A DNA stretch of 64,000 nt from sequence record PZ476263.1; one strand, 5' to 3'. Below are positions 2,373 through 42,484 of this stretch, piece by piece. The number at the start of each line of letters is the position of its first letter. Positions within the stretch are counted from its first letter, which is position 1. This stretch comes from a phage. The notes beneath the pieces were generated by a model. That model worked only from the letters and a program-made list of their open reading frames with translations. It had not been told where the DNA came from and made no database searches. The translations under genes were made by a program, and so were the position numbers.

Positions 2373-2373
2373 A

Positions 2374-3118: not shown

Positions 3119-3127
3119 AAATCATTT

Positions 3128-18964: not shown

Positions 18965-19047
18965 GCGCGGGTGTATCTCAACGGTCTTCTAAACCGTCGT
19001 TAATCGAGTAATTGGAGTATGAAGGTTCGAGTCCTTCCTCCCGCGCT
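18965..19047 (+). tRNA. tRNA-like element, atypical (canonical anticodon arm with UCU and T-arm, but no canonical D-arm or encoded CCA)
   Basis: acceptor GCGCGGG/CCCGCGC; ACGGU-CUUCUAA-ACCGU anticodon hairpin; GAAGG-TTCGAGT-CCTTC T-arm. Confidence 0.35.
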
Positions 19048-19064
19048 AAGTTCTTTTAAATGCA

Positions 19065-19140
19065 GGCCCTTTAGCTCAGTGGTTAGAGCAGGCGACTCAT
19101 AATCGCTTGGTCGCTGGTTCAAGTCCGGCAAGGGCCACCA
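19065..19140 (+). tRNA. tRNA with CAT anticodon; anticodon stem and acceptor resemble enterobacterial tRNA-Ile2 (lysidine) rather than elongator Met
   Basis: GGCCCTT acceptor, GCTC/GAGC D-stem, GGCGA-CTCATAA-TCGCT anticodon arm, TTCAAGT T-loop, encoded CCA. Confidence 0.8.
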
Positions 19141-19157
19141 CTCAATAGTTTATTTAC

Positions 19158-19249
19158 AAGATCATTCAGTAATTAAGCGAATGCCGGAAGCAGAACCGGA
19201 TCAACAAATGCGTACGGGTGTCATCGCCACCTAGCAACTGAATGATCTT
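19158..19249 (+). other. long stem-loop RNA element (13-bp perfect inverted repeat flanking 66 nt), followed by U-run; possible terminator or small RNA
   Basis: AAGATCATTCAGT (19158-19170) and ACTGAATGATCTT (19237-19249); internal CCGG-aagcagaa-CCGG hairpin. Confidence 0.45.
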
Positions 19250-19332
19250 TTAAATTCTCTTAACCTCATAAAATCCTTGACATAATAAGAAATTCCTGAT
19301 AACATCTCTATATCGACTTAATTGAGGTGCTT

Positions 19333-19707
19333 ATGCCTAAAGCTGAAATCGTTACTAGAAAACGGGGTCGGCCTACTACAGAGGAAAGTATCGCTATCAA
19401 CACCGAGAAGGCGATTCTTCATGCTCGTTCAGAGTTTGCAAGACTTACTCCTCAGGCGATTAAGACTCTGGAAGGTCTACTCACTTCCGGTACAGAGAAA
19501 GTTAAAGAAACTACTGCGAAGTATATTCTTGAACAGGCTGAAAAAGCTAACAATCTGTACACGATGGAAGATAATGAGGAAGATTTAGCGGGAGGTTCAA
19601 CTTCTGCGGATTCTGATACTCATAAAGGCCCTTCTGATGTATTTAAGGATGCAATTCCTCTTACTACTCAAATCAGAGAGTATAAAATTGCAGAAGGTGA
19701 AAACTAA
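19333..19707 (+). CDS. hypothetical protein with N-terminal basic KRGRPT segment
   Basis: 124 aa from ATG at 19333. Confidence 0.4.
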   Translation: MPKAEIVTRKRGRPTTEESIAINTEKAILHARSEFARLTPQAIKTLEGLLTSGTEKVKETTAKYILEQAEKANNLYTMEDNEEDLAGGSTSADSDTHKGPSDVFKDAIPLTTQIREYKIAEGEN

Positions 19708-19728
19708 AGGCTCTTAGGGGCCTTTTAT
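19707..19728 (+). terminator. putative intrinsic terminator
   Basis: AGGCTC-ttag-GGGCCT hairpin followed by TTTTATT. Confidence 0.4.
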
Positions 19729-19946
19729 TAATAGTTCTTTTTAATGTAGTTGCTTGGTGTAATTTTTCGGCAGATGGCTGCAACCATCCTATCGATAACT
19801 CATAGTTAGTGCTGCAAACACTGGCTACCTTAAAGAGAATTTAACTCGTCGAATAAGGAAGATGCTGATCTCAAAGTGAGGTCACTTACCGCAAGGGGTG
19901 TGCATAGACTCCCGCTTCCGAATAGACTATGTGGCGAGATGTATTT

Positions 19947-20028
19947 GGGGACGTGGCAGAGCGGTCGAATGCGCCTGACTGTAAATCAGGTATCCCACAC
20001 GGTGGTTCGAATCCATCCGGCCCCACCA
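19947..20028 (+). tRNA. tRNA-Tyr (GTA)
   Basis: CCTGA-CTGTAAA-TCAGG anticodon arm, GGTGG-TTCGAAT-CCATC T-arm, acceptor CGGCCCC-A-CCA; overall like enterobacterial tRNA-Tyr. Confidence 0.75.
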
Positions 20029-20282
20029 AATTAAGAAGCAGGGTCGCTACCTGCAAGTCGTCGGACTGAGATTCCCTGAATAAGACCCGACTTTAAGGCG
20101 TACAAATGTTCGGTTTAAAGTCCCTTATCTCACAGTCGAAACGGCGCATCCTATTCAGCCGTGATGTGATGTAATCACTGACCTCTTTGAAGGATCATGG
20201 CATCCTATACAAAAAAAAAACCTGAATAATTTAGGTTTTAATGCCTGGGGGTTCGTAGCCCTATTACTAAGAGGACTTAACT

Positions 20283-20492
20283 ATGTTTACTATTAAAATT
20301 ATTGATATCGATGGAAATGAGACGGGTGTTTCAACAAGGCACTACAGATGGTACTCAAAAATGAATATTTTTGATGTGGAGGGTGGAGAATCTGTTTCTG
20401 TACCACCAAAAAGTCGTGCTTATGTAATGAATGACAAAGGAATAACCATCGGTAGATACACAAATACAGCGGATCAACGCGTTCTTAATTAA
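20283..20492 (+). CDS. hypothetical protein
   Basis: 69 aa ORF between tRNAs. Confidence 0.35.
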   Translation: MFTIKIIDIDGNETGVSTRHYRWYSKMNIFDVEGGESVSVPPKSRAYVMNDKGITIGRYTNTADQRVLN

Positions 20493-20493
20493 A

Positions 20494-20568
<75 letters not shown>

Positions 20569-20667
20569 AACACATATCCATCTGACGCGTTTATGGGGTT
20601 GACCTGATCAATCTTCTCCTAATTTCGTGTGAAGACATCATGATTGTTGGGATGGATAAACTTATTT

Positions 20668-20742
20668 TGGGGATTAGCCAAGCGGTAAGGCATCGGATTT
20701 TGATTCCGACATTCACTGGTTCGAGTCCAGTATCCCCAGCCA
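20668..20742 (+). tRNA. tRNA-Gln (TTG)
   Basis: TGGGGAT...AAGCGGTAAGG...CGGATTTTGATTCCG...GGTTCGAGTCC...CCCCAGCCA; very close to E. coli tRNA-Gln. Confidence 0.85.
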
Positions 20743-20747
20743 ATTAA

Positions 20748-20824
20748 CGGTGTGTAGCGCAGCTTGGTAGCGCATCTGGTTTGGGGCCAGAGGGCCGTTG
20801 GTTCGAATCCAACTACACCGACCA
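20748..20824 (+). tRNA. tRNA-Pro (TGG)
   Basis: CGGTGTG TAGCGCAGCTTGGTAGCGCA TCTGG-TTTGGGG-CCAGA ... GGTTCGAATCC ... CACCGACCA; very close to E. coli tRNA-Pro. Confidence 0.85.
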
Positions 20825-20900: not shown

Positions 20901-20914
20901 TTTGGTCTTTCGGT

Positions 20915-20923
20915 GATAAAATA
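20915..20923 (+). promoter_or_regulatory. late-type promoter element GATAAAATA (extended -10-like TGnTAAAAT)
   Basis: gTGATAAAATAc 17 nt upstream of spanin start; same motif recurs upstream of other late operons. Confidence 0.45.
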
Positions 20924-20939
20924 CTCAAAGGAGGTAATC

Positions 20940-21302
20940 ATGCCAGATTTTAAAAAATATTTATTCATTGCTATATTCATAGTGTTCTTAATTTCATCTG
21001 CTAAGCTTTATCTTAATCATGTTGAATCAGTAGGTTACGAAAAAGGTTTCAATGTTGCTAACTCTGCTTGGGTAAAAAAGGCAGGGGAGTACAAAAAGAA
21101 AATTGACGATACATATGAAGAAAACAAGCGTCTTAACGAGGAGCTTTCCCGATCCAATCAGGAAAAGATAAAGGATGAAAAGGCAAAAGAAGAAAAAATT
21201 ACCGATATGCAGATCGAATACTACAAGTCTGAAAAAGGTAAGGATGTCTTTGACAATAATGAAATAATTGACATATACAACGAATCCTTGGGGGTAAAAT
21301 GA
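20940..21302 (+). CDS. i-spanin-like protein (N-terminal TM helix + periplasmic coiled coil)
   Basis: MPDFKKYLFIAIFIVFLISSAKLYL TM followed by charged coiled-coil; ATG at 20940 after AGGAGG RBS. Confidence 0.5.
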   Translation: MPDFKKYLFIAIFIVFLISSAKLYLNHVESVGYEKGFNVANSAWVKKAGEYKKKIDDTYEENKRLNEELSRSNQEKIKDEKAKEEKITDMQIEYYKSEKGKDVFDNNEIIDIYNESLGVK

Positions 21303-21598
21303 GAAAAATATTTATAGCTTTCTTCTTTTGCTTTTTACTTTCCGGTTGTCAATCAGCAGAAATCTGTGGCCCTACGGAAGAAGTAACTATTGAGAAGATT
21401 CTTCCTAAACCTGATCTTGAACTCCTTGTCAAAGAAAAGGAAAAGAAGCTCATCCAGAAGGGATCTACTAATGCAGACGTTGGAAAGGTCATGAGTGATA
21501 ACAATCTTCGTTCCAATCGTATAGAGCGCCGTTGGGAAGGCTTAAGGACTTACGTTTGCAACAGTTTCAAAAATATCCCTAAAGAATACTGCGATTAA
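21299..21598 (+). CDS. o-spanin-like outer-membrane lipoprotein
   Basis: signal peptide with lipobox FLLSGC; ATGA overlap with upstream i-spanin-like gene. Confidence 0.5.
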   Translation: MRKIFIAFFFCFLLSGCQSAEICGPTEEVTIEKILPKPDLELLVKEKEKKLIQKGSTNADVGKVMSDNNLRSNRIERRWEGLRTYVCNSFKNIPKEYCD

Positions 21599-21606
21599 CA
21601 TTGACA

Positions 21607-21638
21607 GGCCCTTGCTTTTATGCAAGGGCTTTATTTTT
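21607..21638 (+). terminator. intrinsic terminator
   Basis: GGCCCTTGC-ttttat-GCAAGGGCT followed by TTATTTTT. Confidence 0.6.
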
Positions 21639-21695: not shown

Positions 21696-22050
21696 ATGTC
21701 TGCTACATTCGCACCTGCGAGTCGCAAGCAACAAATGGTTCTCGAATCTACAGCACAGATTATGGTAATAGGTGGTGCAGCAGGATCAGGTAAATCATAC
21801 CTTTTACAGTTGATGCCTTTGCTTATTGTAAACGACCCTAAAACAGCCTGCATCATGTTTCGTCGTACTGTACCGCAGATTCGTGGACAAGGTGGCTTGT
21901 TTGACAAAGCTAAAGATATTTATAACCAGCTGCCTCCGGTAGTTAAGCCGAAGTTTAAAGAGAACGAGATGACTGCTACATTCCCTAACGGAGCAACCGT
22001 TAAGTGGCAGTCTATGCAACACGTAAGTGATAAATACGACATCCAGGGGT
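21696..22050 (+). CDS. terL: terminase large subunit, exon 1 (Walker A ATPase segment)
   Basis: IGGAAGSGKSY Walker A; frame terminates at TAA 22050-22052 inside predicted intron 1; predicted 5' splice site after U22050. Confidence 0.6.
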
Positions 22051-22960
22051 AAAAATTTCCTGCCCATCGTATCTTAATCGGTGAAACTCTGTTATAATAA
22101 GTACAGACAATACCGAGATCCATTACCTGAAATGACAGTAGGGAGATATGATGAAAAAATTTGAAATTGTTCCAAGCAAACCTGAATTTTCCGTAAGTGA
22201 AGACGGGCTGATTATGTTTACCTCTACAGGTACTATTCTTAAGCCGTATGTTGATAAGGATGGTTACCACAGGGTTAGAAATTTCTCTGCTGGAGGTAAA
22301 TCTCATTACATCGCCGTTCATCGCGCCGTTGCTGAGGTTTTTGTTAAAAACCCTAACCCAAAAGTGTTTAAGATTGTTAATCACTTGGATAATGTTAAGA
22401 GCAACAATCATAAAACCAATTTGGAATGGACAACCGAATCATTAAACCGAGTTCATGCAGTTCATGCCAACGGTACAGCATCTGTTAGAAACAATGTTAA
22501 ATTTACAGAAGGTCAAGTCAGAAAGGTGTGTGAACTTTTGAGCTTGGGCTATCGGATAGTTGATATTGTGAAACTTACAGGCGTTGATAGATTCAATGTG
22601 ATGGCAATTAGAAGCGGAAAATCTTGGGTTCAGATCTCTTGTGAGTTTGAAACTTTAAAAGTAGAAAGAAAAGATACACTGTCTGAAAAGACGATTCTTT
22701 GGATTAAAGACCAAATTAATCGCCAAAGGTCAGATGATGAAATACTTTTAATGTCGGTAAGACTTACAAAAGAAGAGCTTGAAAGAGCAAAGAAGATTAT
22801 TTCATTGATGGATTGTAACGACTAATGCTGATGAGTGTAAGCATGTAGGGCCAAGCGGTCCGAAACGATACGCCAAGGATGGAAGATATAGTCTGAACTA
22901 TATGGTGACATATAGCTGCTTAAGCAGGGTTAAGATTAGCGATCTTAATCGAACACAATG
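22051..22960 (+). mobile_element. group I intron 1 (about 910 nt) with internal HNH homing endonuclease ORF
   Basis: S element AAGATATAGTC at 22883-22893, R-like AACGACTAA at 22818-22825, P9 hairpin CTATATG-GTGA-CATATAG (GNRA loop), candidate IGS GCCC near 5' end, 3' end ...GAACACAATG. Confidence 0.6.
22148..22825 (+). CDS. intron-encoded HNH homing endonuclease
   Basis: DGYHRV...HRAVAEVF...NHLDNVKSNNHKTNLEW HNH core; lies wholly between terminase exons. Confidence 0.65.
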   Translation: MMKKFEIVPSKPEFSVSEDGLIMFTSTGTILKPYVDKDGYHRVRNFSAGGKSHYIAVHRAVAEVFVKNPNPKVFKIVNHLDNVKSNNHKTNLEWTTESLNRVHAVHANGTASVRNNVKFTEGQVRKVCELLSLGYRIVDIVKLTGVDRFNVMAIRSGKSWVQISCEFETLKVERKDTLSEKTILWIKDQINRQRSDDEILLMSVRLTKEELERAKKIISLMDCND

Positions 22961-23014
22961 TGGAATTTACATTTATAGGTGTGGACGAAGGCACTCAGTT
23001 TGAGTGGGAGCAGT
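22961..23014 (+). CDS. terL: terminase large subunit, exon 2 (54-nt micro-exon encoding Walker B-like FTFIGVDEGTQFEWEQ)
   Basis: in-frame segment between two intron cores; hydrophobic stretch + DE typical of terminase Walker B. Confidence 0.5.
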
Positions 23015-23341
23015 TAATCTAGCTGCCTCGTACAGTAATGTACGATGAGAAATTCTTGTGAATTGCTGGAAAATCCTTAGAGCTTGTAAAACTACAACAT
23101 GACCTGCAAAGGTGAGTGTGAATGTTAAAAATTTACAAGATTGGACGATCAGCCTCCAAGCCTCTTTACGAGAGGAAGGTTCAACGACTAGCCGAAAGGC
23201 GTAGATCATAAGCAAATGATGATCGAAGTGCAAGACCCCTACCTTATTGGTAGGGTGAAGATATAGTCTGATCTGCATGGTAACATGCAGCAGTGCTTGA
23301 GTGCACGGCAACGAACTTGCGATCCGTTGCGAACATAACAG
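23015..23341 (+). mobile_element. group I intron 2 (about 327 nt, ORF-less)
   Basis: IGS-like GCTGC pairing with exon GCAGU; R-like GTTCAACGACTAG 23179-23191; S AAGATATAGTC 23258-23268; P9 CTGCATG-GTAA-CATGCAG; 3' end ...GAACATAACAG. Confidence 0.55.
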
Positions 23342-24420
23342 TAGAATACATGATGTCTCGTCTTCGTTCCAGTTCTTCTTACCCTTCACGAATGGTAATT
23401 AGTTGTAACCCTGATCCTGATCATTATCTTCGTAAGATGGTTGATTGGTATCTCGATAAGGATGGTTATCCTGATCCTACAAAGGATGGAGTCATTCGAT
23501 ATTTCGTTCGAGTTGATGACCAATACATGTGGGGCGAATCAGTAGAAGAGCTTAAGAAGCGGTACGGTAAGAAATGTAAGCCTGTTTCTTTTACATTTAT
23601 ATCTTCTACTATTTACGATAACCCACCAATGCTTATTAACAACCCAGACTATCTAGCACAGCTGGAAGGTCTTAATGAGGTTGACAGAGCAAGACTGTTA
23701 CACGGCAACTGGGATGCACGTCCTCAGGGTGCTAACTATTTTAAACGTTCTTTTCTTAAAGAGGTTGATGTTCTTCCTTTAGGTGTAGATAAGGTTAGAT
23801 CATACGATAAAGCAGGAACTGAACGTTCTACAGGTAATAAAACACCTGACTTTACAGCCGGAATCGGTGTGGCGAGAGATCAGGACGGAATTTATTATCT
23901 TTTTGGCGATTATTGTGAAGAGTTTGTTGATGAAGGTGATTGGTCTACTGGCAACCTTGGTAGGTTCTGTAAGAAAGCTGGTGAACGAGATACGATCATT
24001 ATGAAACAAGCAATTCATGACGGTGATGATGTTAGAATAATATTCCCTGTTGACCCTGGTCAAGCGGGTATTGCTGAATTCACTACATCTTCCCGAGAAT
24101 TATTAAATCAAGGATTCATTGTTGAGAAAGACCCAACTCCTGGTAACAAGAAGAAGCTTGTACGCTTCTCTCCGTTTGCTAACCTTGCTCAGAACGGATT
24201 TGTTAGGATTGTTAAAAAGTCTTTCCCTTTGGATACCTATGAAGCATTAATGAAAGAGCTTGAATCTTTCAATGGTGAAAGGTCAACAGGGACACGTAAA
24301 GATGACTGGGTGGATGCTATCTCAACCGGAATAAATTTCCTTGAGAAAACAGAAATAGTCAGGGCTGTTACAATACCACGACCTTCTGCCCCAACACTTT
24401 ATTCGAAGTATCGACGATAA
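23342..24420 (+). CDS. terL: terminase large subunit, exon 3 (nuclease domain)
   Basis: continues ...EYMMSRLRSSSSYPSRMVISCNPDP...; acidic nuclease motifs DQDGIYYLFGDY, DPGQAGIA, DDWVDAISTG. Confidence 0.6.
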
Positions 24421-29940: not shown

Positions 29941-32900
29941 ATGTCTGAATACAATGATAAGGTCGTAGAGGCTTTTGTTACTGCCCCAGATCCTGTCGTT
30001 ACTACCAGTGGTGGTGGAGTTATTTTTAACGGTATTGAAACTCGTGATACCGTTTCTACCACTTTGGTTGGTGATGGTACTGTAACTGCGCCTCTTCAAG
30101 CACAAATTCGTGTTTCTCGTCGAGCAGGTAACGCCCTTCAGGTAGTTCAAACTGAAAGTGAACAAGGTCTGTTTGCATCGGCAGGCGAAGCTAAAGTTTC
30201 CGTATCTGCTGTCAACGTTGCAAAATATGTTACAGCTGAAGAAGCTGCAAGTCAAGGTGATGCTGCACTGGAAGGTGTTTTAGTAGAACCTGTTCACTTA
30301 ACCACCACAGCAGCAACATCTGGATTACAGATCAGTGCAGATCCTCTGACTGGTAAAAAATCTCGAATCGGTCTTGTTGTTTCACCTGCTGCCACTAACG
30401 CACTGTCTTTAGAAGAAGATGGTTTGTCTGTTAAAGTGTCTCCAGCTATTGATAACAACATTCAAGTTCGTGAAGGTGCTCTGTATGTTCCTCCGAGCAA
30501 TGCAGAAGTATCTCCTGATTCCGACAACAAGCTTGAATTACGTTCCAATGGTCTTTATGTTGCCACTGTAAAAGGTGACAAAGGCGACCAGGGTGAACAA
30601 GGCCCAGCGGGTCCTCAAGGTGAAGTAGGTCCAGAAGGTCCGCAAGGTCCGGCTGGAGAGAAGGGTGACCAAGGTGAACAAGGACCTCAAGGTGACAAAG
30701 GGGATCAGGGCGTAGCTGGTCCAGCAGGTCCACAAGGTGCTCGTGGTCCAGAAGGTCCTCGTGGTGAAACTGGCTTGGGCATTAATGTTCTGAGTTCTTT
30801 AGACTCGGAAGATCAGTTGCCTTCTGTTGTTGATTTACAGAATGGTGATACCTATGTAATCGGACAAAACTTCTTTACTGTCATCACTGAAGGTGGTGTA
30901 AAACAGTGGAGAAATATTGGTAACTTCGCAGGCCCAGAAGGTCAATCTGCATTTGAAGTTGCTGAGACTGCTGGATTTGTTGGTACTGTAGATGATTGGT
31001 TAGCAAGTCTTCGCGGTGCTGATGGTATCGGTCTTCAGCTTCTTGGCGCTCTGCGTCGTGTGGAAGACTTACCGGAAGAAGGCAACCGACAAGGCGATGC
31101 TTATATCATTCAGGAACAAATGTATGTTTGGACTGGTGATGTAGATCGTTGGCAGATTGTAGGTCAGATTGGCCCAGAAGGTCGTTCTGCTTATCAGGTT
31201 TGGTTGGCGAATGGCAATACTGGATCACAAGTTGACTTCCTTAACTCACTCAAGGGTGAAAAGGGAGATACGGGTGAGCAAGGTCCTCAGGGGGAAAGGG
31301 GCGAAGACGGTAAAAACGCAAACGCAATCAACATCCTTGGTAGTGTAGCTGATGAAGCTTCTCTTCCAGAAGGCGCTGATGCAGGTGATGCCTACCTTAT
31401 TGGGACTAACGTCTTTGTATCAGACGGCGCTGGTAACTGGGAAAATTTGGGATCTTTCCAAGGCCCACAAGGTGATCAGGGTGTTAAAGGTGACAAAGGC
31501 GATAAGGGAGACAAGGGCGATAAAGGTGATAAAGGTGATGACAACTACACCATTGCTGTTGCTAACGGTTTCGTCGGATCTGTAACTGAATACCTTGCGT
31601 CCATTAAGGGTGAGAAAGGTGATGTAGGTGCAACTGGTCCCCGTGGTCTTACTGGTCCACAGGGTGAACAGGGTCCCGTCGGTGCTGGTCTGAATATTCT
31701 CGGATCTTTCGAGGATGAGTCTGAACTGCCAACTTCTGGAATTACCGAAGGTGATGCCTACCTGATCCAAGGATTCCTTTATATCTTTACTGGAGGTTCT
31801 TTTAAGAACGTTGGTGAAGTTAAGGGTCCTAAAGGAGATCAGGGCGATGTAGGACCTGCGGGTCCACAGGGTGAGCAGGGTATTGCGGGACCACAAGGCC
31901 AGCAAGGTTTAGTTGGACCTGCGGGTCCTCAAGGCGAGACTGGTCCACAAGGCCCAGAAGGTCCAGAAGGTCCTCAAGGTCCTCAAGGAGCGCAGGGTGA
32001 AAAAGGCGATATTGGTAGTGGCCTTATTGCTCGTGGAACTGTTGAAACATCTGTGCAATTGCCTAGTGACGCTGCAATCGGTGATTTTTACGTTGTAACT
32101 TCCGAAGGTATTGGCTATGCTTGGGACGGTTCTGATTGGGTAGCCACAGGATTAGCACAAGGACCTATAGGTCCTGCTGGAGCTGATGGTGCCAAGGGTG
32201 AAAAAGGCGACAAAGGAGATCAAGGAGAAAAAGGCGACGCTGGTACAGGTCTGACTCCGAAAGGTCTTGTTGACACATCTTCTGACTTACCTTCTTCTGC
32301 TGAAGTTGGTGATTTCTACGTAGCTGCTGACACTGGTATTGGTTATGCTTGGGACGGCACTTCTTTTGTAGAGTCCGGCACTGTACGTGGACCACAAGGT
32401 GAAGCGGGTCCTCAGGGCGAAGCAGGTCCAGAAGGTCCGCAAGGCCCTCAGGGTGGAATAGGTCCCGTTGGACCAGAAGGTCCGCAAGGTATCGCTGGCC
32501 CTAAAGGGGATAAAGGTGACGTTGGTAGTGGTTTAATCCCTCGTGGAACAATCCCGACTATGGCAGACCTTCCTTTGACTGGTGAAGTTGGTGACTTTTA
32601 CGTAGCCAATGATACGGGAATCGGCTATGCCTTTAACGGGACTGCTTTTATAGAGTCTGGGGTTGCTCGCGGCCCTCAGGGCGAGAAGGGTGAAACTGGT
32701 GCAGTTGGACCGCAGGGTCCGGTTGGTGCTACTGGTGCAATTGGACCGCAGGGTCCTCAGGGTGCTCAAGGTGAACAGGGCATTCAAGGTGAACGAGGAG
32801 AAATCGGTCCTCAGGGTGAGAAAGGTGACACTGGAGAGCAGGGTCCTCAAGGGGATATCGGTCCAGGGGTTGAGATCATCGGTAAATTCGATAACTCTTC

Positions 32901-33729
32901 CGAACTTCCTTCTACTGGTCAATTAGGTCAAGGTTATCTGATCCAAGGTGATTTCTGGGGATGGACAGGTACTGCTTATGAAAACTTAGGTCGTATTCAA
33001 GGTCCTGTAGGCCCTGTAGGTCCGACTGGTAACCAAGGTCCACAAGGTCCTGTCGGTGTTAAAGGGGATAAAGGTGACCAAGGTACTTTGTGGATTGTAT
33101 TCGCAAGGGATCCTTTGGTAAGTGATGGTCGTGTCAACGACTTCTTCCTGAACTCTTCTACTTTGGAATACTTCCGTAAAACGTCTGCAACTAACTGGGC
33201 TTCCCTCGGATACTTGGGTGGTGGTAACGTTTATGATGCACCTGGGGATGGTAAAGCTTACGTCCGTCAAGATCAGGGCTGGTCTGAATTAACTTACCCT
33301 GTCAATGAAGCACCTACCGATGGCGGTGATTATGTTCGTAAGAATGGTACTTGGAGCACTCTGGTTATTCCGGTAACGGAAGCTCCGCTGGAAGGTGGAT
33401 TCTACGTCCGTGAAAACGGTGAGTGGGTGAAACTCGACAAATACGACTTGCGTGTAATTGCTTCTACTGGTGTGGTTGATGCATCTCAGGCCAACAGCTG
33501 GACTTTGGACGGAACAACCAGTAAGTCCTTGGTGATTAATAACCTTCCCGAAGGCCGAGCAATGACTCTTGTACTGAGATTCACTGGTAACGGTGGAAAC
33601 ATTACTTGGGACTCTAAGATCGCATGGTCTAATGGTACAGCACCTGTGCTGGGAGTTACCCGTACTATCCTGACTCTGTTCTGGGATGGTGAGTTCCTTA
33701 CTGGTACTCAAGCAATGACTGTTGGTTAA
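29941..33729 (+). CDS. collagen-like repeat fiber protein (1262 aa)
   Basis: multiple G-X-Y runs ([25 protein letters not shown]...) alternating with eight ~35-aa modules (LP..G..GD.Y.....G..W); C-terminal triple YVR.NG.W repeats. Confidence 0.7.
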   Translation: MSEYNDKVVEAFVTAPDPVVTTSGGGVIFNGIETRDTVSTTLVGDGTVTAPLQAQIRVSRRAGNALQVVQTESEQGLFASAGEAKVSVSAVNVAKYVTAEEAASQGDAALEGVLVEPVHLTTTAATSGLQISADPLTGKKSRIGLVVSPAATNALSLEEDGLSVKVSPAIDNNIQVREGALYVPPSNAEVSPDSDNKLELRSNGLYVATVKGDKGDQGEQGPAGPQGEVGPEGPQGPAGEKGDQGEQGPQGDKGDQGVAGPAGPQGARGPEGPRGETGLGINVLSSLDSEDQLPSVVDLQNGDTYVIGQNFFTVITEGGVKQWRNIGNFAGPEGQSAFEVAETAGFVGTVDDWLASLRGADGIGLQLLGALRRVEDLPEEGNRQGDAYIIQEQMYVWTGDVDRWQIVGQIGPEGRSAYQVWLANGNTGSQVDFLNSLKGEKGDTGEQGPQGERGEDGKNANAINILGSVADEASLPEGADAGDAYLIGTNVFVSDGAGNWENLGSFQGPQGDQGVKGDKGDKGDKGDKGDKGDDNYTIAVANGFVGSVTEYLASIKGEKGDVGATGPRGLTGPQGEQGPVGAGLNILGSFEDESELPTSGITEGDAYLIQGFLYIFTGGSFKNVGEVKGPKGDQGDVGPAGPQGEQGIAGPQGQQGLVGPAGPQGETGPQGPEGPEGPQGPQGAQGEKGDIGSGLIARGTVETSVQLPSDAAIGDFYVVTSEGIGYAWDGSDWVATGLAQGPIGPAGADGAKGEKGDKGDQGEKGDAGTGLTPKGLVDTSSDLPSSAEVGDFYVAADTGIGYAWDGTSFVESGTVRGPQGEAGPQGEAGPEGPQGPQGGIGPVGPEGPQGIAGPKGDKGDVGSGLIPRGTIPTMADLPLTGEVGDFYVANDTGIGYAFNGTAFIESGVARGPQGEKGETGAVGPQGPVGATGAIGPQGPQGAQGEQGIQGERGEIGPQGEKGDTGEQGPQGDIGPGVEIIGKFDNSSELPSTGQLGQGYLIQGDFWGWTGTAYENLGRIQGPVGPVGPTGNQGPQGPVGVKGDKGDQGTLWIVFARDPLVSDGRVNDFFLNSSTLEYFRKTSATNWASLGYLGGGNVYDAPGDGKAYVRQDQGWSELTYPVNEAPTDGGDYVRKNGTWSTLVIPVTEAPLEGGFYVRENGEWVKLDKYDLRVIASTGVVDASQANSWTLDGTTSKSLVINNLPEGRAMTLVLRFTGNGGNITWDSKIAWSNGTAPVLGVTRTILTLFWDGEFLTGTQAMTVG

Positions 33730-33739
33730 TTTTCAATAA

Positions 33740-33760
33740 GGGGGCTTCGGCCCCCATTTT
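33740..33760 (+). terminator. UUCG-tetraloop hairpin, possible terminator/attenuator
   Basis: GGGGGC-ttcg-GCCCCC followed by ATTTT then AAGGAG RBS. Confidence 0.4.
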
Positions 33761-33771
33761 AAGGAGAAGTA

Positions 33772-34407
33772 ATGAGTATTAAAATTTATGGCTGGGTTCC
33801 AATGATTCGTATGTCCGACATGCGTTATCCTGTTTACCTTTCCGACTTTAAAGCTGAATATACCAACGTATCTACCGGAAGCTTCGTCTATGAAGAGGGT
33901 ATGGCTGAATTTGGTTATTACCCTGTTCTTGATGTTGATATTCCGCAAGGTGATGTAGTTACCGAAGGAGCACCAGTTCAAGGTGAGGATGGCAAATGGT
34001 ATAAATCTTGGAACTCTCGTGACTACACCGAAGAAGAGATCGCTGATAACCTTCGTCGTCAAAAAGAACAATTAATCTACTCTGCCAAATCTAATTTCGA
34101 AAATGAAAACATGGGGGGTGTAGAAGTTGATGGTAGTTTCTATTCTGTAGATTCAAATTCACTCTCTCTTTATCATTCTATTCTCTCTGTTGCAGAAATG
34201 TCTGAAGACGACAAATTGTTCAGTCTGTTAACTTACGACAATAAGGTTATCGAACATCTCCGTTTAGATGCAATCGAACTTATTGAAGAAATAATTTCCG
34301 TGTATGTAGAAAGCTACAATAATATGACGGCTTTCATTAAAGAAGTGAATGTTGCAAAAAATATGGAAGAATTACCTTCCGTACCTGAGTCTTTCCGCAT
34401 TGCTTAA
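33772..34407 (+). CDS. hypothetical protein between fiber genes (possible fiber assembly factor)
   Basis: 211 aa ORF, acidic C-terminal half. Confidence 0.35.
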   Translation: MSIKIYGWVPMIRMSDMRYPVYLSDFKAEYTNVSTGSFVYEEGMAEFGYYPVLDVDIPQGDVVTEGAPVQGEDGKWYKSWNSRDYTEEEIADNLRRQKEQLIYSAKSNFENENMGGVEVDGSFYSVDSNSLSLYHSILSVAEMSEDDKLFSLLTYDNKVIEHLRLDAIELIEEIISVYVESYNNMTAFIKEVNVAKNMEELPSVPESFRIA

Positions 34408-34419
34408 TCGAGGTAATAT

Positions 34420-36036
<1,617 letters not shown>

Positions 36037-36074
36037 TTTAATTATAATTCACAGGGACGTGATTAGGAGATAAT

Positions 36075-37658
36075 ATGACGAATTCTGTAGTAGGTATGGC
36101 AGGTCACAATAATGGTGTATTTTATGGATACTCTCTTTATGACTTGGAGCAAAAAAGAAAGATAGCCTTTAAAGATTTAACTAAGGGTGACTCAGGGGCG
36201 AAGGGCGATAAGGGTGATCCTGGTCCAGAAGGTCCACAAGGTGATAAAGGAGATACCGGAGAGCAAGGCCCTGTAGGACCTCAAGGTCCTGCTGGTGCAC
36301 CAGGGCAACAAGGTGTGCCTGGTGAAAGAGGACCTCAAGGTCCCGAAGGCCCACAAGGCCCTCAAGGCCCAATTGGTCCCGAAGGACCAGTAGGACCAAT
36401 CGGCTCCCAAGGTCCCGAAGGTCCTAAAGGAGAGCAAGGTGAACAAGGCCCTTCTGGATCTCAAGGTCCTCAAGGATTAAAAGGGGATACAGGGGCACAA
36501 GGACCTCAAGGTCCCGTTGGACCCAGAGGAGAGACAGGTGCAACAGGACCTGTTGGACCTAAAGGGGACACAGGCCCAACAGGTCCAAAAGGAGAAACGG
36601 GTGAACAGGGACCCATTGGTCCGCAAGGACCTAAGGGTGATACAGGTCCCGTGGGTCCTGCAAGCTTAACCTTCAGAGGTTTCTATGAACCTCTTGAAGA
36701 ATACAACGAAAAGGATACAGTAGCTTATAATGGTTCTACTTATTTTGCGTTAAGAACCAGTACAGGAGCAACACCGGATATTTCTCCCGATGACTGGGCA
36801 TTACTTGCAGCTGAAGGTGCAGTTGGACCACAAGGACCTATGGGACCAGAGGGTCCGCAAGGTATCGCTGGTGCTCAAGGTCAGGAAGGCCCTATAGGAC
36901 CGCAAGGTGAACAGGGTCCGGTTGGACCTGTTGGCCCACAAGGCCCACAAGGTCCTGCGGGTCAGGAAGGAATAGAAGGCCCTCAGGGACCTCAAGGAGA
37001 AGAAGGCCCTATGGGACCTCAGGGACCACAAGGGATTGTAGGACCAACAGGTCCACAAGGCCCTCAAGGCCCCAAAGGGGACACTGGTGCAGTTGGACCA
37101 CAAGGTCCTCAAGGCCAACAAGGTCTTGATGGTCCACAAGGCCCTGCTGGTCCGCAAGGCGAAAGAGGTGTTACTGGACTAACCGGACCCCAAGGTCCCA
37201 AGGGTGATATCGGCCCTGTGGGTCCGGCTGGCCCTCAAGGTAAGGATGGTAATTCTTACACTATCTACAACTGGGGCAACATATCAACGGGCTATGGTGA
37301 GATGGTAATACCTGGTGTTACTAACACAGTATTCAGAGTGAGACGAGTAGGAACCACATTAGAATACAGTGTACTTAGTAAAGGTGGTGCGAATAGATAC
37401 CTTGACTTCCATACCATAATTCCAGCCCCCTCTACAGGGGGCGCTGTAATTATCCAATCAGGAAATACAACATTGACATCCTCCAGCTCTTTAAATGTTG
37501 TTACATCTGCACCTCCTGGTCTTGGTTTTCGACCAATATTCATCTCTTTAAAAGAGTGGGGAGATAGGGCAATAGTAACCATAGAGGTTTTCCACACAGG
37601 TAGAAGTGGAGATTCCAGTTACCCAATACATGTTCGTATGCTAACGACGAAGTATTGA
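36075..37658 (+). CDS. collagen-like fiber protein, paralog B (527 aa)
   Basis: N-terminal [25 protein letters not shown] runs, central [12 protein letters not shown] module, different C-terminal domain. Confidence 0.65.
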
Positions 37659-37662
37659 CATG

Positions 37663-37690
37663 AAAGCCACCTTCGGGTGGCTTTATTTTT
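37663..37690 (+). terminator. intrinsic terminator (UUCG tetraloop)
   Basis: AAAGCCACC-ttcg-GGTGGCTTT followed by ATTTTTAT. Confidence 0.65.
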
Positions 37691-37748
37691 ATACAAATGA
37701 CTTTCTTTTAATTTTGTGATAACATGTTTTAATACACTGGAGGATAAT

Positions 37749-38273
37749 ATGACTGATGCAGAAGTAGTACAGCTTGTTCGTAACTTTTTAGGCGGACTTA
37801 CTGAAGATGAAATGCCTGATAGCATGATTCTGTTTTTCTATAATAAATGGAAGGTTTGTTACGACTTAGAAAACAGGCCAGATCAATTTTCAATTATTCT
37901 GTACAATACCGTGCTTGATTGCGTACGTTGGCTTATTGTTCAGGAAGTTTCAAGTGGAGCTTCTGCAATTCGTGAACGATTCGAAAAAGTCGGTGATGAA
38001 ACCATATCCGTTAAATACGGGTCTAACTCTGGAAACTGGCAAGACTTCCTCGACTGGTTGACCGAACATCCTGAATATATTGATCCCTGCCTTAAGGATA
38101 ATGCCGTAGGTTCTGGGCTTGGTCTAATTATTATCGGTGGAACAAGAAAGGGGGAATTTGCAAGAGTTAAAAGAAATCGTGATTCTTTCAATGGCTTTAT
38201 GGAACCAGGTATTTTCCCTGCTGCGGGTACAAGAACTGGTGTCAAAAAGCGTAATCCTTGGATGGTCAACTAA
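37749..38273 (+). CDS. head-tail joining / neck protein (putative)
   Basis: ATG at 37749 after GGAGG RBS; position between fiber and tail genes. Confidence 0.3.
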   Translation: MTDAEVVQLVRNFLGGLTEDEMPDSMILFFYNKWKVCYDLENRPDQFSIILYNTVLDCVRWLIVQEVSSGASAIRERFEKVGDETISVKYGSNSGNWQDFLDWLTEHPEYIDPCLKDNAVGSGLGLIIIGGTRKGEFARVKRNRDSFNGFMEPGIFPAAGTRTGVKKRNPWMVN

Positions 38274-38335
38274 AGCTTTGACTTTGTTGCTTTTGCTCAT
38301 CTATTGTGGTAAAATAACTTTCATGGAGAATAACC

Positions 38336-38797
38336 GTGAAGAAAGTATCAACAATTGATTTTTCCGTCATGGACCACTATTACGACCAAATAACTGAATT
38401 GGAAGGCAAAGAAATAGAAGTAGGATTCTTTGACGAGCCTCACTATTCAGGTCTTAATATGGCAACTCTCGCCGCTATTCATGAAAACGGCTGGCACAAT
38501 CTCCCTGAACGTAATTTCATGCTTTCTACCGCTGTTCATTACAGGGGTGGACTCTATAAGAATCTTGCAAAACTTCATTCGGATATTCTCAAGCGTAAAC
38601 CTTATACTGTCGCTCTTAATAAGATCGGCAAGGATTATGCAGATAGTATCCGATTCACTATCGACCAAGGGACATTTACCAATAACCGAGTATCCTCGGA
38701 ATGGGCCAGTGTTAAGGGTTTCAGTGATGCAATGATTCACTACGGAGATCTTTACAGTTCAGCGAAGTTTAAGATTGTTGCACTAACGAAAGACTAA
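38336..38797 (+). CDS. head-tail joining / neck protein (putative)
   Basis: 153 aa, synteny. Confidence 0.3.
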   Translation: MKKVSTIDFSVMDHYYDQITELEGKEIEVGFFDEPHYSGLNMATLAAIHENGWHNLPERNFMLSTAVHYRGGLYKNLAKLHSDILKRKPYTVALNKIGKDYADSIRFTIDQGTFTNNRVSSEWASVKGFSDAMIHYGDLYSSAKFKIVALTKD

Positions 38798-38806
38798 GGG
38801 GGCTGA

Positions 38807-39247
38807 ATGTCTCGCGGATATGCATTGCTGAGGGGACGTAACCAGCTTATTCCTCGTATAGAGGTTGAAGGTCGTCGCCGTACATATAAAAAAGTAGATT
38901 TAGATGACCCGTTCGACAATGGTGGTGTGGAAATTGAATACACACCAATAACCGCTGTAGAATGTGTCATCCAACCAATCAGGGGTAAGGCTTTACGTGA
39001 TCAAAACAACCAGCTAACTGCTGCGGGTGAAGAAGATTACGATTCTTACACTGTTTATTCAGAAACTGTGCTTTATCGAGCACAGGAAGGTACGGATAAA
39101 TTATCTGATCAGTTATGGCTTCCTAACTCTGTTGGGGAGCATAGTTGGTTTACCGTTATGAAAGCTGACCCTTATCCGAGTTCAGGTACGATGCGTTATC
39201 GCTACTATCTGATTGCTGTTCCTGTAGGAACGGAGGGTGGATTATAA
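38807..39247 (+). CDS. head-tail joining / neck protein (putative)
   Basis: 146 aa, synteny. Confidence 0.3.
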   Translation: MSRGYALLRGRNQLIPRIEVEGRRRTYKKVDLDDPFDNGGVEIEYTPITAVECVIQPIRGKALRDQNNQLTAAGEEDYDSYTVYSETVLYRAQEGTDKLSDQLWLPNSVGEHSWFTVMKADPYPSSGTMRYRYYLIAVPVGTEGGL

Positions 39248-39897
39248 TGGATCAACTTCCTAATGAGTTTACCAACTCCGACGAGATTATGGGTAATCTT
39301 ACAAAGACCATCGGTCGTCTATTGAAAGACGTAACCACCTATCGTGTGGTTGAAGCTAATGAAACAATCCCTAAAGTTGAGGGACCTTTCATTCTCGTAG
39401 ATCTTACAGATTTGACCCCTCTCGATTGGGAAACAAATAGTATTGTTGAAGATGGTGTTACCCACACTGTTCACAACTACACCGCAACATATAACCTTAC
39501 GGCATATCGTGGAAAACCTCACTGGGCGTTAACTCGATTCCATCAAGCGTTAAGTTTGGCTTGGATAAGAGATAAATACTTTCCAGTTGGTTCTCCTTTT
39601 GCCTATTCGTCATCTTCATCTATTGCAAGATTAAGAATACCTCTTAATGAACAATATTATGAAAACAGGGCGAGACTGCTTGTTACATTTAACGTTACGT
39701 TCGTTGAAAGTGACTTCGGTCAGTTTGAGGACATTGAAACTATCATCATTAGCACAACGACTGACCCTGAGGGGATCGAGAACGATGCGGTTGTTGATAT
39801 CAATTTTCCACCTGGAGGTGATGTCCCTATGTTGCCACCACAACCTGAACACGAATTAACTTACATCGACACTATCGTCACTGTCAATGAAAAGTAA
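39247..39897 (+). CDS. tail completion / sheath terminator protein (putative)
   Basis: 216 aa, ATGA-type overlap with upstream gene; synteny. Confidence 0.3.
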   Translation: MDQLPNEFTNSDEIMGNLTKTIGRLLKDVTTYRVVEANETIPKVEGPFILVDLTDLTPLDWETNSIVEDGVTHTVHNYTATYNLTAYRGKPHWALTRFHQALSLAWIRDKYFPVGSPFAYSSSSSIARLRIPLNEQYYENRARLLVTFNVTFVESDFGQFEDIETIIISTTTDPEGIENDAVVDINFPPGGDVPMLPPQPEHELTYIDTIVTVNEK

Positions 39898-40007
39898 ATC
39901 CGGTTATTGATAGGCACTTGCTTATCAGTGACAAATGAGGGGCTTCGGCCCCTAATCAATTGGCACTTCCGTGCTAGTCAATAATCGTCTAGAAGCAGAG
40001 GATAAAC

Positions 40008-41423
40008 ATGGCTTATGAAGATAAGGTAGTTGACGTCGAGGTAACTCTTGGTACTCAGCCTATTGATACCGTAGGGTTCGAAACCCCGATGTTCTTAGCA
40101 GTTCATAATAACTTCCCAGAACGTGTACGTTTTTATGGATCATTGGAAAGTCTGGTAGGTGATGGTTTTGCAGTTGGTTCAGCTGCTTATCAGTTTGCCT
40201 CGAACGTATTTGCAGGTTCTTTTGCTGCAAGTCTGGTAGGTATCGGACGTATGTCTCTGGCAAGTTCTCGTGTAGATTTTACCGGAACAGTCAATGAAGA
40301 ACGCGTCGTTGTAAATATTACCATCAATGGTACTATTAAAGCAGTAACTATTTCGCTGCAAGTTGGAAACACCCCAGGTCAAGTTGCTACCGCTCTTGCA
40401 ACTGGTATTAATGATGATGTAGACCTCGCAGGTCGAGTTGTTGCTACTGTAGAAAACAGCACTGTTGTAGTGATCCAGTCTGCTGAGAAAGTTAGCATCG
40501 GGAAAGGTGAGGGCACTTATAAGATCGTAAACACCTCTGCTGAAACTGTTGCTACTGTATTGCCTCAGGTTCTGGCTGAAAACCACAACTGGTACTTCCT
40601 GTCCCATGAACAGCGTTCTGATGCAGATATCGTTGCTGCTGCCGAATTTGCTCAGGCAAACTACAAACTGCACGTTTATAACTCCAGCGATTCTGATGCA
40701 CTGGCGGCTGCTAACCAAAGCACCTCTGTCTTTGACACGCTGAAATCTTTGGGTTATAACTCCCTCGGGACCTACGACAAAGATGCAGATGTGGAATATA
40801 CCGAAGGTTCTGTAATCGGTGCAATGGCTGCAAACGATCCTTCTTACGGTGACTCTATCCACCTGAAGACAATGCCTGGTATGGCTCCTTCTACCATCTC
40901 TGAAACTCAGCGTATGAACGCATGGGGACGTAACGCAAACATTTATCGTGCAATGTACGGTACTAACAGCTATATCGAAGGTCGTACTTCCAGCGGTCAG
41001 TATGTTGACGTTATTCGCTTCTCCCACTGGCTGAAGTTCCGTATGGAAGAATCTGTATTTGGTTACATGAAGCGTCGTTCTGATCAAGGTCAGTCCATGA
41101 AGATGAGTGATGAAGATCTTCCGGTTCTGCGTTCTATCCTGTTTAACAACCCAATCAACATCGGTATTCGTAACGGTGGTATCTTGACGGGTTATGACAG
41201 TGTGAACCGTGTAAGCTACGATCCGATTATCACCATCCCACGTCGTGCTGAAATCCCGACTAACGATTTAGCTAACCGTATCCTGCGTGATGTTAAAGTT
41301 GAAGTAGTTTACAACAACTCTCTGCATTACGTCAAAATCCGCGCTGCTGTGGTTCTTGATCGTCCGGCAAATACGACTCAGAGCACCCAAGCTCCTTTCT
41401 CTAACTCTTCTGTAGGGGTGTAA
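40008..41423 (+). CDS. tail sheath protein (putative, P2 FI-like position)
   Basis: 471 aa gene followed by 160-aa tube-size gene, frameshifted chaperone pair and tape measure. Confidence 0.5.
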   Translation: MAYEDKVVDVEVTLGTQPIDTVGFETPMFLAVHNNFPERVRFYGSLESLVGDGFAVGSAAYQFASNVFAGSFAASLVGIGRMSLASSRVDFTGTVNEERVVVNITINGTIKAVTISLQVGNTPGQVATALATGINDDVDLAGRVVATVENSTVVVIQSAEKVSIGKGEGTYKIVNTSAETVATVLPQVLAENHNWYFLSHEQRSDADIVAAAEFAQANYKLHVYNSSDSDALAAANQSTSVFDTLKSLGYNSLGTYDKDADVEYTEGSVIGAMAANDPSYGDSIHLKTMPGMAPSTISETQRMNAWGRNANIYRAMYGTNSYIEGRTSSGQYVDVIRFSHWLKFRMEESVFGYMKRRSDQGQSMKMSDEDLPVLRSILFNNPINIGIRNGGILTGYDSVNRVSYDPIITIPRRAEIPTNDLANRILRDVKVEVVYNNSLHYVKIRAAVVLDRPANTTQSTQAPFSNSSVGV

Positions 41424-41426
41424 TAA

Positions 41427-41909
41427 ATGGCTTCGAATCCTAAGTTAATTAGTCTCCAGGCGTATGACCCAGCGAAAGTTCTGATCTTTATTGGTGGACA
41501 ACGTGTTTCTGGATTTGCTGCCGATACCAAGGTCGTAATTTCTCGTAACAACGACAACATCACTCCGCTGTCTGGTGTGGATGGGGAGATCAGTTCTGCA
41601 ATTGTTCGTGATAACTCTGGTGTCGTAACTATTTCTCTCCAGAACACTTCCGTTTGGAATGGTTATCTGGCACAATGGCAGTTGCAAGCTCGTGTCACCG
41701 GACTCGTGTACTTCCCAATCCAGATTGAAGGTTCTCAGGGTCTGTCTCTGAACACCTTTGGATGGGTACAACGTCAACCGGACTTGACATATGGCTCAGA
41801 AGTTGGTCAAATGGACTGGGAAATCGGTGTTGTCGATGCTCAACTGTCCGCTGATCAGATTCAGGGAGTTGCAGCTGGCATTACTGGTATTCTTGGTTTA
41901 GATCAGTAA
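41427..41909 (+). CDS. tail tube protein (putative, P2 FII-like position)
   Basis: 160 aa, immediately after sheath-size gene. Confidence 0.5.
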   Translation: MASNPKLISLQAYDPAKVLIFIGGQRVSGFAADTKVVISRNNDNITPLSGVDGEISSAIVRDNSGVVTISLQNTSVWNGYLAQWQLQARVTGLVYFPIQIEGSQGLSLNTFGWVQRQPDLTYGSEVGQMDWEIGVVDAQLSADQIQGVAAGITGILGLDQ

Positions 41910-41984
41910 TTACGTGAGCCTCAGGGATGAGGCCCTTATTCACGGTATGGAAAATATTAACTAAGTGGACACAGGAGTGTAAAC

Positions 41985-42458
41985 GTGCAAGGTTTTAAAA
42001 TTAAAAAGAGTACAGATATTATCCTTTGCGGTGGTAAACGATTCACTATTTATCATTGGTCACCTACTCAAGTGATCCGTAACATGCCTAAGATTGGTAA
42101 ACTTGTTGCTGTTCCTCTGGGAACTATGGCAGGCTCTGCAATCTCTGGTGGGCAAGATTTTCAAGACGCTGTACCAACAGCAATCCTTTACATTCTGGAT
42201 CGTATCGATGAAGGCGGTCTGGATATAATCAACCTTCTTTTAGATGGTGTTGAAGTAGATAGTATGGGTGGCCCAATCGATATCGATGAAGTGTTCGATG
42301 GTCACGTTGAAGATTTGTTTAAATTACTGGCTGAAATTATTCAAGTGAACTACGGCTGTTTTTTCGGGAAGAGCGGTTTCGGGACAATCGAAAATCTCCT
42401 TCAGAAATTTGGTCTGGTTCGGAAGGTGAACGAGCTGGATCAGACGGAAGAAGCCTGA
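41985..42458 (+). CDS. tail assembly chaperone (short form)
   Basis: 157 aa upstream of tape measure; contains slippery T_TTT_TTC near its 3' end. Confidence 0.5.
   Translation: MQGFKIKKSTDIILCGGKRFTIYHWSPTQVIRNMPKIGKLVAVPLGTMAGSAISGGQDFQDAVPTAILYILDRIDEGGLDIINLLLDGVEVDSMGGPIDIDEVFDGHVEDLFKLLAEIIQVNYGCFFGKSGFGTIENLLQKFGLVRKVNELDQTEEA
42359..42365 (+). other. candidate -1 programmed ribosomal frameshift site (T_TTT_TTC)
   Basis: heptamer in zero frame X_XXY_YYZ; -1 frame is open from here through 42727. Confidence 0.45.
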
Positions 42459-42484
42459 GGCCGCTTAGTACCGTAGAGAGGGCT

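Follow-up and report, generated by a model that had tools for sequence, protein, structure and literature searches.

A terminase large subunit gene in three exons, with a 54-nt Walker B exon between two predicted group I introns, in an rV5-like phage

Organization of the terL locus

The 64,000-nucleotide (nt) stretch of sequence record PZ476263.1 analysed here (the window) belongs to an uncultured rV5-like myovirus of the Vequintavirinae, and its terminase large subunit gene (terL, encoding TerL) is divided into three exons by two intervening sequences with group I intron features. All the open reading frames (ORFs), exons, introns and helices of the locus lie on the plus strand. The ORF listing contains a Walker A ORF of 118 amino acids (aa) (21696-22052, TAA stop at 22050-22052), a 225-aa endonuclease ORF (22148-22825), a short in-frame segment of 20 aa containing EFTFIGVDEGTQFEWEQ (22960-23022) and a C-terminal, nuclease-side ORF of 375 aa (23293-24420), as an earlier note on this DNA had described. 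In Pfam searches the 118-aa and 375-aa ORFs matched opposite ends of Terminase_6N, and the latter also matched Terminase_6C.

The nearest sequenced phages are the Vequintavirinae coliphages UPEC06, A5-4, A7_1 and LTH01 (~80-83% DNA identity), in all of which terL is uninterrupted (1488 nt, 495 aa). A megablast search of INPHARED with the terL locus and positions 30000-50000 returned only relatives at ~80-83%, every one intronless at the window's sites. The intact UPEC06 terL aligned to the window in three pieces: nt 1-353 with 21696-22048, nt 356-410 with 22961-23015, and nt 404-1488 with 23337-24420. The exact boundaries were set by group I rules, in which the last base of the exon is U and the last base of the intron is G. 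The splice coordinates obtained, 22050/22961 and 23014/23342, were derived independently of the earlier note and are identical to its proposal to the base.

Exon 1 (355 nt, 21696-22050), defined by the UPEC06 alignment, comprises codons 1-118 and the first base of L119, includes the Walker A sequence GAAGSGKS and covers positions 2-91 of the Terminase_6N profile; its last base, U22050, is the U of the U·G pair in P1. It is followed by intron 1 (910 nt, 22051-22960), assigned to group I, IA type, by its fold and covariation and by a partial Rfam match. Exon 2, the micro-exon (54 nt, 22961-23014), also defined by the UPEC06 alignment, contains the last two bases of L119, EFTFIGVDEGTQFEWEQ and the first base of L137. 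Intron 2 (327 nt, 23015-23341) has no ORF and was assigned to group I, IA type, with Rfam RF00028. Exon 3 (1079 nt including the stop, 23342-24420), supported by the UPEC06 alignment (90.8% aa identity) and Pfam, encodes the remainder of the ATPase domain, with the motif C region SCN, and the RNaseH-like nuclease domain, covering Terminase_6N positions 113-212 plus Terminase_6C.

The joined exons (21696-22050, 22961-23014 and 23342-24420) give 1488 nt, a multiple of three, with a single terminal stop and 495 aa, reading ...KYDIQGLEFTFIGVDEGTQFEWEQLEYMMSRLRSS... across the junctions. The junction peptides, DIQGLEFTFIGVDEGTQFEWEQLEYMMSR (DIQGLEFTF and EWEQLEYMM), and the length are those predicted earlier, and the product shares 92.9% identity with intact TerLs along their entire length. 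In the unspliced RNA, an in-frame TAA (22050-22052) overlaps the splice site of exon 1 and an in-frame TAG (23020-22) lies near the 5' splice site of intron 2. Each 5' splice site therefore has a stop codon at it or no more than two codons away, and translation of unspliced RNA would be terminated.

Conceptual splicing also restored intact 1488-nt ORFs in two related contigs with introns in terL, L027 and L028 (see below). Codon differences in the spliced frame were mostly synonymous, with 36 synonymous versus 2 nonsynonymous between the window and L027, 195 versus 77 with L028, and 183 versus 35 with UPEC06, so the spliced terL frame, micro-exons included, is under purifying selection.

The micro-exon and the identity of the predicted spliced product

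Exon 2 carries the predicted Walker B β-strand FIGV, followed by D127-E128. Both acidic residues are conserved without exception in eight TerLs, the most divergent at 44% identity, and an AlphaFold2 model of the spliced TerL (predicted local distance difference test, pLDDT, 69) placed a strand at residues 123-126. The exon covers approximately positions 92-112 of Terminase_6N. The spliced protein matched this profile in a single stretch from 2 to 212 with 82.2 bits (cut-off 22), whereas the protein without the micro-exon scored 52.5 bits and matched only positions 115-212. The restored register, the strand and the invariant residues agree with the earlier proposal that the 54-nt exon encodes Walker B.

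The spliced protein also matched Terminase_6C (29.8 bits, cut-off 22.6), and its Walker A motif GSGKS is located at residues 30-34. Walker A lies ~94 aa and SCN ~30 aa from Walker B, spacings that we take to fit a T4-type TerL (gp17). Searches of PDB sequences with the spliced TerL and with an eight-sequence profile found no terminase, so a search by fold was needed. Foldseek with the model gave the D6E, Sf6 and T4 large terminases as the best PDB matches (E~1e-11). The two Pfam domains, the Walker A and Walker B motifs and the fold together identify a T4-type large terminase.

Structure of intron 2

Intron 2 matched the Rfam model Intron_gpI (RF00028) over its full length (1-253) with 78.7 bits (E=2.5e-18; gathering score 50 bits), and its P3-P9 core is present. 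The helices are P2 (23030-34/23039-43), P3 (23053-60/23229-35), P4 (23064-69/23149-53), P6 (23161-66/23170-75), P7 (23186-90/23264-68), P8 (23237-43/23249-55) and P9 with a GUAA loop (23273-79/23284-90), followed by P9.1 and P9.2. P7.1 and P7.2 are found between P7 and P3', the IA-type layout of phage introns. P1 (GCAGU/GCUGC, 23010-14/23022-26, with U23014·G23022) and P10 (UCUA/UAGA, 23018-21/23342-45) were paired by hand, and the terminal G of the intron is 23341. The Rfam alignment had offered another P1 (22990-98 with 23020-28), which was rejected in favour of the canonical GCAGU/GCUGC helix with its U·G at the splice site.

An orthologue of intron 2 is present at the same site in L028 (79% identity, 69.3 bits against Rfam). 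RNAalifold on intron 2, this orthologue, rV5 intron 1 and an intron of Escherichia phage W70 recovered P3, P4, P5, P6, P8, P9, P9.1 and P9.2, with compensatory changes in 23 of the 55 predicted pairs.

Outside terL, the database sequence closest to intron 2 was found in W70 (78.8% identity over 59% of the query). The W70 locus (L004, 1774-2060 and 3194-3482) is a primase/helicase region with two group I matches, one strong (70.4 bits) and the other weak, and an HNH gene; therefore, the same intron family sits in different genes of this phage group.

Structure and orthologues of intron 1

Intron 1 was folded as an ORF-deleted RNA by minimum free energy. The fold contains P1 (GGGUA/UGCCC, 22047-22051/22061-22065, with U22050·G22062), P3 (CGUAUC/GAUACG, 22068-73/22867-72), P4 (22078-83/22111-16), P5 (22088-92/22103-07), a long-range P6 that encloses the ORF (22118-25/22806-13 and 22128-33/22799-804), P7 (GACUA/UAGUC, 22820-24/22889-93) followed by P7.1 and P7.2, and P9 with a GUGA loop (22898-904/22909-15) followed by P9.1 and P9.2; P2 is absent. 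P10 is UUCC/GGAA (22057-60/22962-65) and the terminal G is 22960.

Orthologues were traced through the endonuclease protein, and five contigs from Sequence Read Archive (SRA) assemblies (L027-L031) all have this intron, inserted at the identical position of terL. Among the six orthologues, 97.1% of the alignment cells at 59 pairs in ten helices are standard pairs. Both sides had changed in 24 of these pairs; 0 of 500 shuffles reached this result, and pairing fell to 33-40% in a control with the partners slid by one to three columns. Among the pairs with compensatory changes are two of P3, two of the P7 pseudoknot strand and six of the eight that form the ORF-spanning P6. The P10 guide tracks the exon sequence: UUCC/GGAA in the window, UGUA/UACA in L029 (exon TACAATTT), and CCA/UGG plus AAACU/AGUUU in L030. 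Intron 1 therefore shows the conserved P3-P6 and P7-P9 helices, the P3/P7 pseudoknot and the compensatory changes of a group I intron.

In a blastn search with the ORF-deleted intron 1, the 5' half matched nothing and the 3' half matched, at ~70%, only nrdD-type introns of Felix O1-like phages.

Features common to both introns

The earlier note had proposed a group I core in each intervening sequence, a proposal borne out for intron 2 by Rfam and for intron 1 by covariation among the six orthologues. Both introns have a U·G pair in P1, a terminal G and a P10 with the 3' exon. The motifs singled out in that note were all located: the R-like ACGACTA at 22818 and 23184, the S element AAGATATAGTC at 22883 and 23258, the GNRA-capped P9 (GTGA and GTAA), and the 3' tails GAACACAATG and GAACATAACAG. 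The J8/7-P7 segment (AAGAUAUAGUC) and the 3' tails are near-identical between the two introns. At the intron 1 site the codons of intron-bearing alleles are GGG-T and at the intron 2 site GAG-CAG-T, synonymous choices that are compatible with P1 and that most intronless alleles lack; this pattern is expected from co-conversion or from selection for P1.

All the terL introns of the group, irrespective of insertion site, share a P9.2 hairpin whose loop contains U(U/A)GCGA, followed by the GAACA..G 3' tail (window 22930-22948 and 23308-23330; likewise in rV5, phiTE, L027 and L028). Its conservation suggests that the loop makes a tertiary contact or binds a protein. A promoter and terminator scan inside both introns gave nothing above shuffles, and no match to further group I introns was found in the window.

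The endonuclease of intron 1

The P6 loop (L6) of intron 1 contains an HNH homing endonuclease gene (22148-22825, 678 nt, 225 aa), preceded within L6 by the Shine-Dalgarno sequence AGGGAG. Residues 13-114 of the protein aligned to residues 12-109 of I-HmuI (PDB 1U3E; E=3.6e-12) with the HNH motif kept (NHLDNVKSNNHKTNLEW aligned to DHKDGNKDNNLSTNLRW), and the protein matched PHROG HNH families, among them phrog_59, HNH endonuclease (1.3e-30). The Pfam matches to NUMOD4 and HNH_3 were weak, both under their cut-offs. The motif and the homology to a characterised intron endonuclease place the protein with the I-HmuI type. Like I-HmuI, which is encoded in the SPO1 DNA polymerase intron, it is the product of a phage group I intron and the similarity spans the N-terminal and HNH regions. 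However, I-HmuI has 174 aa versus the 225 aa of the window protein, whose C-terminal half found no match.

Orthologues of the endonuclease with 57-96% identity are present at the same terL site in the five other contigs, and the intronless alleles of UPEC06, A5-4 and LTH01 are possible substrates. The last ~27 nt of the gene overlap the 3' strand of P6, J6/7 and the 5' strand of P7, so that translation and ribozyme folding may compete for the same RNA.

Insertion sites in related terL genes

Insertion sites were numbered by the residues of the window TerL. Site a (118/119) is occupied by window intron 1 and by its orthologues in L027-L031, all with an HNH gene. Site b (D127|E128) is used by phiTE and CB7, with an HNH gene, and by L027, L028 and L031, whose introns are ORF-less; these scored 84.4 bits in L027 and 92.7 bits in L028 against Rfam, and the L031 intron was assigned by its 5' start only, the contig ending just inside it. 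Site c (G129|T130) holds rV5 intron 1 (84.9 bits), site d (136/137) window intron 2 and its L028 orthologue, site e (227/228) rV5 intron 2, and site f (258/259) an intron of L029. Sites a-d fall within 57 nt around Walker B.

The sites occur in different combinations: a and d in the window, a alone in L030, a and f in L029, b alone in phiTE and CB7, and c and e in rV5. Sites a and b in L027 and L031 leave a 26-nt exon, and L028 (Logan SRR21707705, 2547-5555) has three group I introns in terL at a, b and d (29.9, 92.7 and 69.3 bits against Rfam), leaving exons of 26 and 28 nt. Identity between introns of one site is 77-79%, compared with 44-59% between introns of different sites, indicating that each site has its own intron lineage. 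The site-a intron of L031 is nearly identical to that of the window (endonuclease 96%), yet its next intron is at b and not at d, which indicates that partner introns are gained and lost independently. Since the site-a endonuclease was the means of finding the loci, ascertainment bias affects the apparent association of ORF-less introns with intron a. By these sequence comparisons, the ~57 bp encoding Walker B in Vequintavirinae terL is an insertion hot spot for at least four intron lineages, which occur in combination.

L029 (Logan SRR27822706, 2559-6019) is a more distant terL, in which the site-a HNH intron is accompanied by a second intron at 258/259 (LLHG|NW) with a 247-aa ORF showing a faint HTH_23 match. 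PHROG families 9526 and 9453 correspond to TerL halves divided near codons 258/259, and a split there thus seems common enough to yield its own protein families. The locus L020 (IMG/VR 3300034190_003117, 1969-3408) has an intronless terL with exactly the spliced site-d junction of the window (GGGAGCAGTTAGAATA) and the P1-compatible GAG, which could be a ready homing site or the footprint of a precise intron loss.

A search of IMG/VR with TerL peptides returned 21 loci, none with the architecture of the window. Exact-pattern scans gave 0 matches in IMG/VR for the intron-1 lineage (P3'-P8-J8/7) and the site-d junction, and 0 matches in the Joint Genome Institute (JGI) metagenomes for the intron-1 pattern. 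Insertion sites a and d therefore appear to be new, having no orthologue in the INPHARED, IMG/VR or JGI scans.

Comparison with known systems

The terL of rV5 is described as three segments, one of them holding a homing endonuclease (PMC3606486), and is annotated in GenBank record NC_011041 as a join of three pieces (ORF64ABC). The rV5 and window genes belong to the same subfamily and share three exons and two group I introns of IA type with the GAACA...G 3' tail; one rV5 intron is ORF-less and the other encodes an HNH endonuclease 34% identical to that of the window. The insertion sites of the window are not those of rV5, which lie at G129|T130, inside the window's micro-exon, and at 227/228. 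In addition, the middle exon of rV5 has 318 nt versus 54 nt in the window, and its endonuclease is in the second intron whereas that of the window is in the first.

The Pectobacterium phages CB7 and phiTE, from the same subfamily, have an HNH-bearing group I intron in the Walker B codons of terL, with P1 GUGGAU/GUCCAC and the same 3' tail, and splicing of the CB7 intron in vivo was demonstrated by reverse transcription PCR (RT-PCR) and Sanger sequencing (PMC7344957). They differ from the window in having a single intron, whose site falls between the window's two, 26 nt downstream of that of intron 1 and 28 nt upstream of that of intron 2, and an endonuclease 27% identical to the window's.

In the Bastillevirinae, two or three group I introns are found in the genes for TerL, DNA polymerase and ribonucleotide reductase, and the reductase gene of phiNIT1 has a small exon between two introns (PMC11878797). 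These phages belong to the Herelleviridae, infect Gram-positive hosts and have a TerL unrelated in sequence to that of the window, and no Walker B micro-exon like that of the window is described in that paper. In mycobacteriophage TerLs, inteins are concentrated in the codons of the P-loop, Walker B and C-motif (PMC5050341). Like intron 1 of the window, they are endonuclease-bearing selfish elements whose splicing is needed to form the active site, but they act at the protein level and not at the RNA level.

The earlier claim that two introns bracketing a catalytic micro-exon are unusual is the weak part of that note, given two in rV5, one in CB7 (by RT-PCR) and two or three in the Bastillevirinae. 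What is new here is the two sites and their combination, within a documented phenomenon, together with an unusually short middle exon.

Neighbouring genes

Just 5' of terL are two ORFs (20913-21598) whose position corresponds to that of the annotated Rz-like spanins of rV5 and phiTE. A hydrophobic segment is found at the N-terminus of the 129-aa ORF, and the 99-aa ORF begins with MRKIFIAFFFCFLLSGCQS, which resembles a lipoprotein signal with the lipobox LSGC. They probably form an i-spanin/o-spanin pair with a 4-nt overlap. Between these putative spanin genes and terL there is a terminator-like hairpin with a 10-bp stem and a T-run (21606-21631), which matches the position of annotated terminators in rV5 and phiTE. 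Six clustered tRNA genes (18967-20821) precede the lysis and terminase genes, as they do in rV5 and LTH01, and the gene downstream of terL encodes a Mu-type portal according to Pfam. In L030 (Logan SRR19414403), a 409-aa gene with a match to Pfam Gad2 (PF26128) is located three genes 5' of terL (367-1596); no counterpart was seen at the equivalent position of the window.

Discussion

The terL of the window is very probably a three-exon gene whose two interruptions are mobile group I introns of phage IA type, both of them self-spliced to give a 495-aa TerL. This interpretation builds on direct observations: the exon boundaries, the ribozyme folds, the restored ORF, the purifying selection on the spliced frame and the endonuclease homology. 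In the proposed mechanism, terL would be transcribed as a single pre-mRNA. Each folded intron, with a guanosine cofactor, would be cut after the U of the preceding exon (U22050 and U23014), held in P1 by the U·G pair, and the exons would be ligated after the terminal G of the intron (G22960 and G23341) with the 3' exon aligned by P10. Only through both splicing events would the Walker A exon, the 54-nt Walker B exon and the exon with the rest of the ATPase and the nuclease be united in one message. The HNH enzyme would presumably nick or cut an intronless terL near the Walker B segment in a mixed infection, with the intron copied in by repair. The ORF-less intron 2, 54 bp away, would most likely have spread by co-conversion in such events, or may be the relic of an older invasion. 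The earlier suggestion that the arrangement couples virion assembly to splicing stands in the trivial sense that full-length TerL would need both splicings; no evidence for regulation was found.

Several points weigh against this interpretation. Splicing of the window's terL RNA is predicted from sequence. Intron 1 scored 23.6 bits against RF00028, below the 50-bit gathering score, and only 22793-22915 was matched, so that of the two introns only intron 2 passed the search with the Rfam group I model that the earlier note had suggested. The orthologues of intron 1 scored 29.9-36.3 bits. This shortfall is attributed to the 678-nt HNH ORF in L6 and to the divergent P4-P6 and P8. P8 is vestigial (2-3 bp); with so minimal a P8, splicing of the intron might depend on a protein cofactor or be inefficient in vitro, as it is for some Bastillevirinae introns (PMC11878797). 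Because the six site-a introns were collected through homology of their endonucleases and aligned in part manually, the data set leans towards the proposed structure; the loss of pairing with slid partners indicates that this bias is not the whole effect, and we consider intron 1 a genuine group I ribozyme despite its sub-threshold score. Lastly, the Walker B assignment draws on the motif, its invariance, the Pfam register and a model of medium confidence.

Exon skipping could be added to normal splicing, without replacing it, as a by-product or a regulator. Joining the 5' site of intron 1 to the 3' site of intron 2 would yield an in-frame 477-aa TerL without Walker B, since 54 nt is a multiple of three and the skipped junction reads GGG-T|TA-GAA (G-L-E). 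The near-identity of J8/7-P7 and of the 3' tails between the introns would favour such joining, and exon skipping between group I introns is reported in SIOphi, with Twort orf142 cited as a precedent (PMC11878797). However, judged by eye, the P10 guide of intron 1 can form more pairs with exon 2 (4+2 bp) than with exon 3 (3 bp, GAA/UUC), and the product would lose the invariant D127-E128 along with the difference between 82.2 and 52.5 bits against Terminase_6N. We regard skipping as fairly unlikely.

It is very improbable that there is no splicing and that TerL is made as separate polypeptides assembled after translation. Such a split is said to occur in the NrdA of Aeromonas phage Aeh1, which is divided by mobE and reportedly assembles from separate polypeptides. 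Gene callers do give separate ORFs of 118 aa and 356-375 aa here, and the GTG at 22960 is a conceivable start codon for a 20-aa peptide; furthermore, an HNH insertion in the nicotinamide phosphoribosyl transferase gene of CB7 did not splice (PMC7344957). However, the Walker B strand would then be a free peptide of 18-20 aa without a ribosome-binding site. In addition, both ribozyme folds are conserved with compensatory changes, which a non-functional RNA would lose, the frame is exactly restored in three independent intron combinations, and the P10 guide tracks the exon sequence.

A dead terL with insertions, or a chimeric assembly, might be suggested by the absence of this exact phage from the INPHARED, IMG/VR and JGI metagenome scans, but is scarcely credible given the same site-a intron in five independent SRA assemblies, substitutions that are overwhelmingly synonymous in the spliced frame, and adjacent putative spanin and portal genes that are intact and syntenic with rV5 and phiTE.

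Returning to the spliced three-exon gene, the Walker B segment might be a contested landing pad in which the spacing of the introns is not neutral. Neighbouring introns might break or shift endonuclease sites, a form of intron exclusion, or a skipped TerL lacking Walker B might modulate packaging or interfere with a co-infecting phage. Intron-versus-intron exclusion has reportedly been described for SPO1 and SP82. We advance this idea as speculation, and think it unlikely to be correct.

For annotation, gene callers report this terL as fragments of 118 aa and 356-375 aa with the Walker B exon overlooked altogether, and PHROG has separate families for the N- and C-terminal halves of TerL. The finding leaves the understanding of how such introns work unchanged and adds two insertion sites to a gene known as an intron host. 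The hot spot at the Walker B codons fits the rule that the most conserved catalytic codons are the targets of homing elements, also illustrated by the mycobacteriophage TerL inteins.

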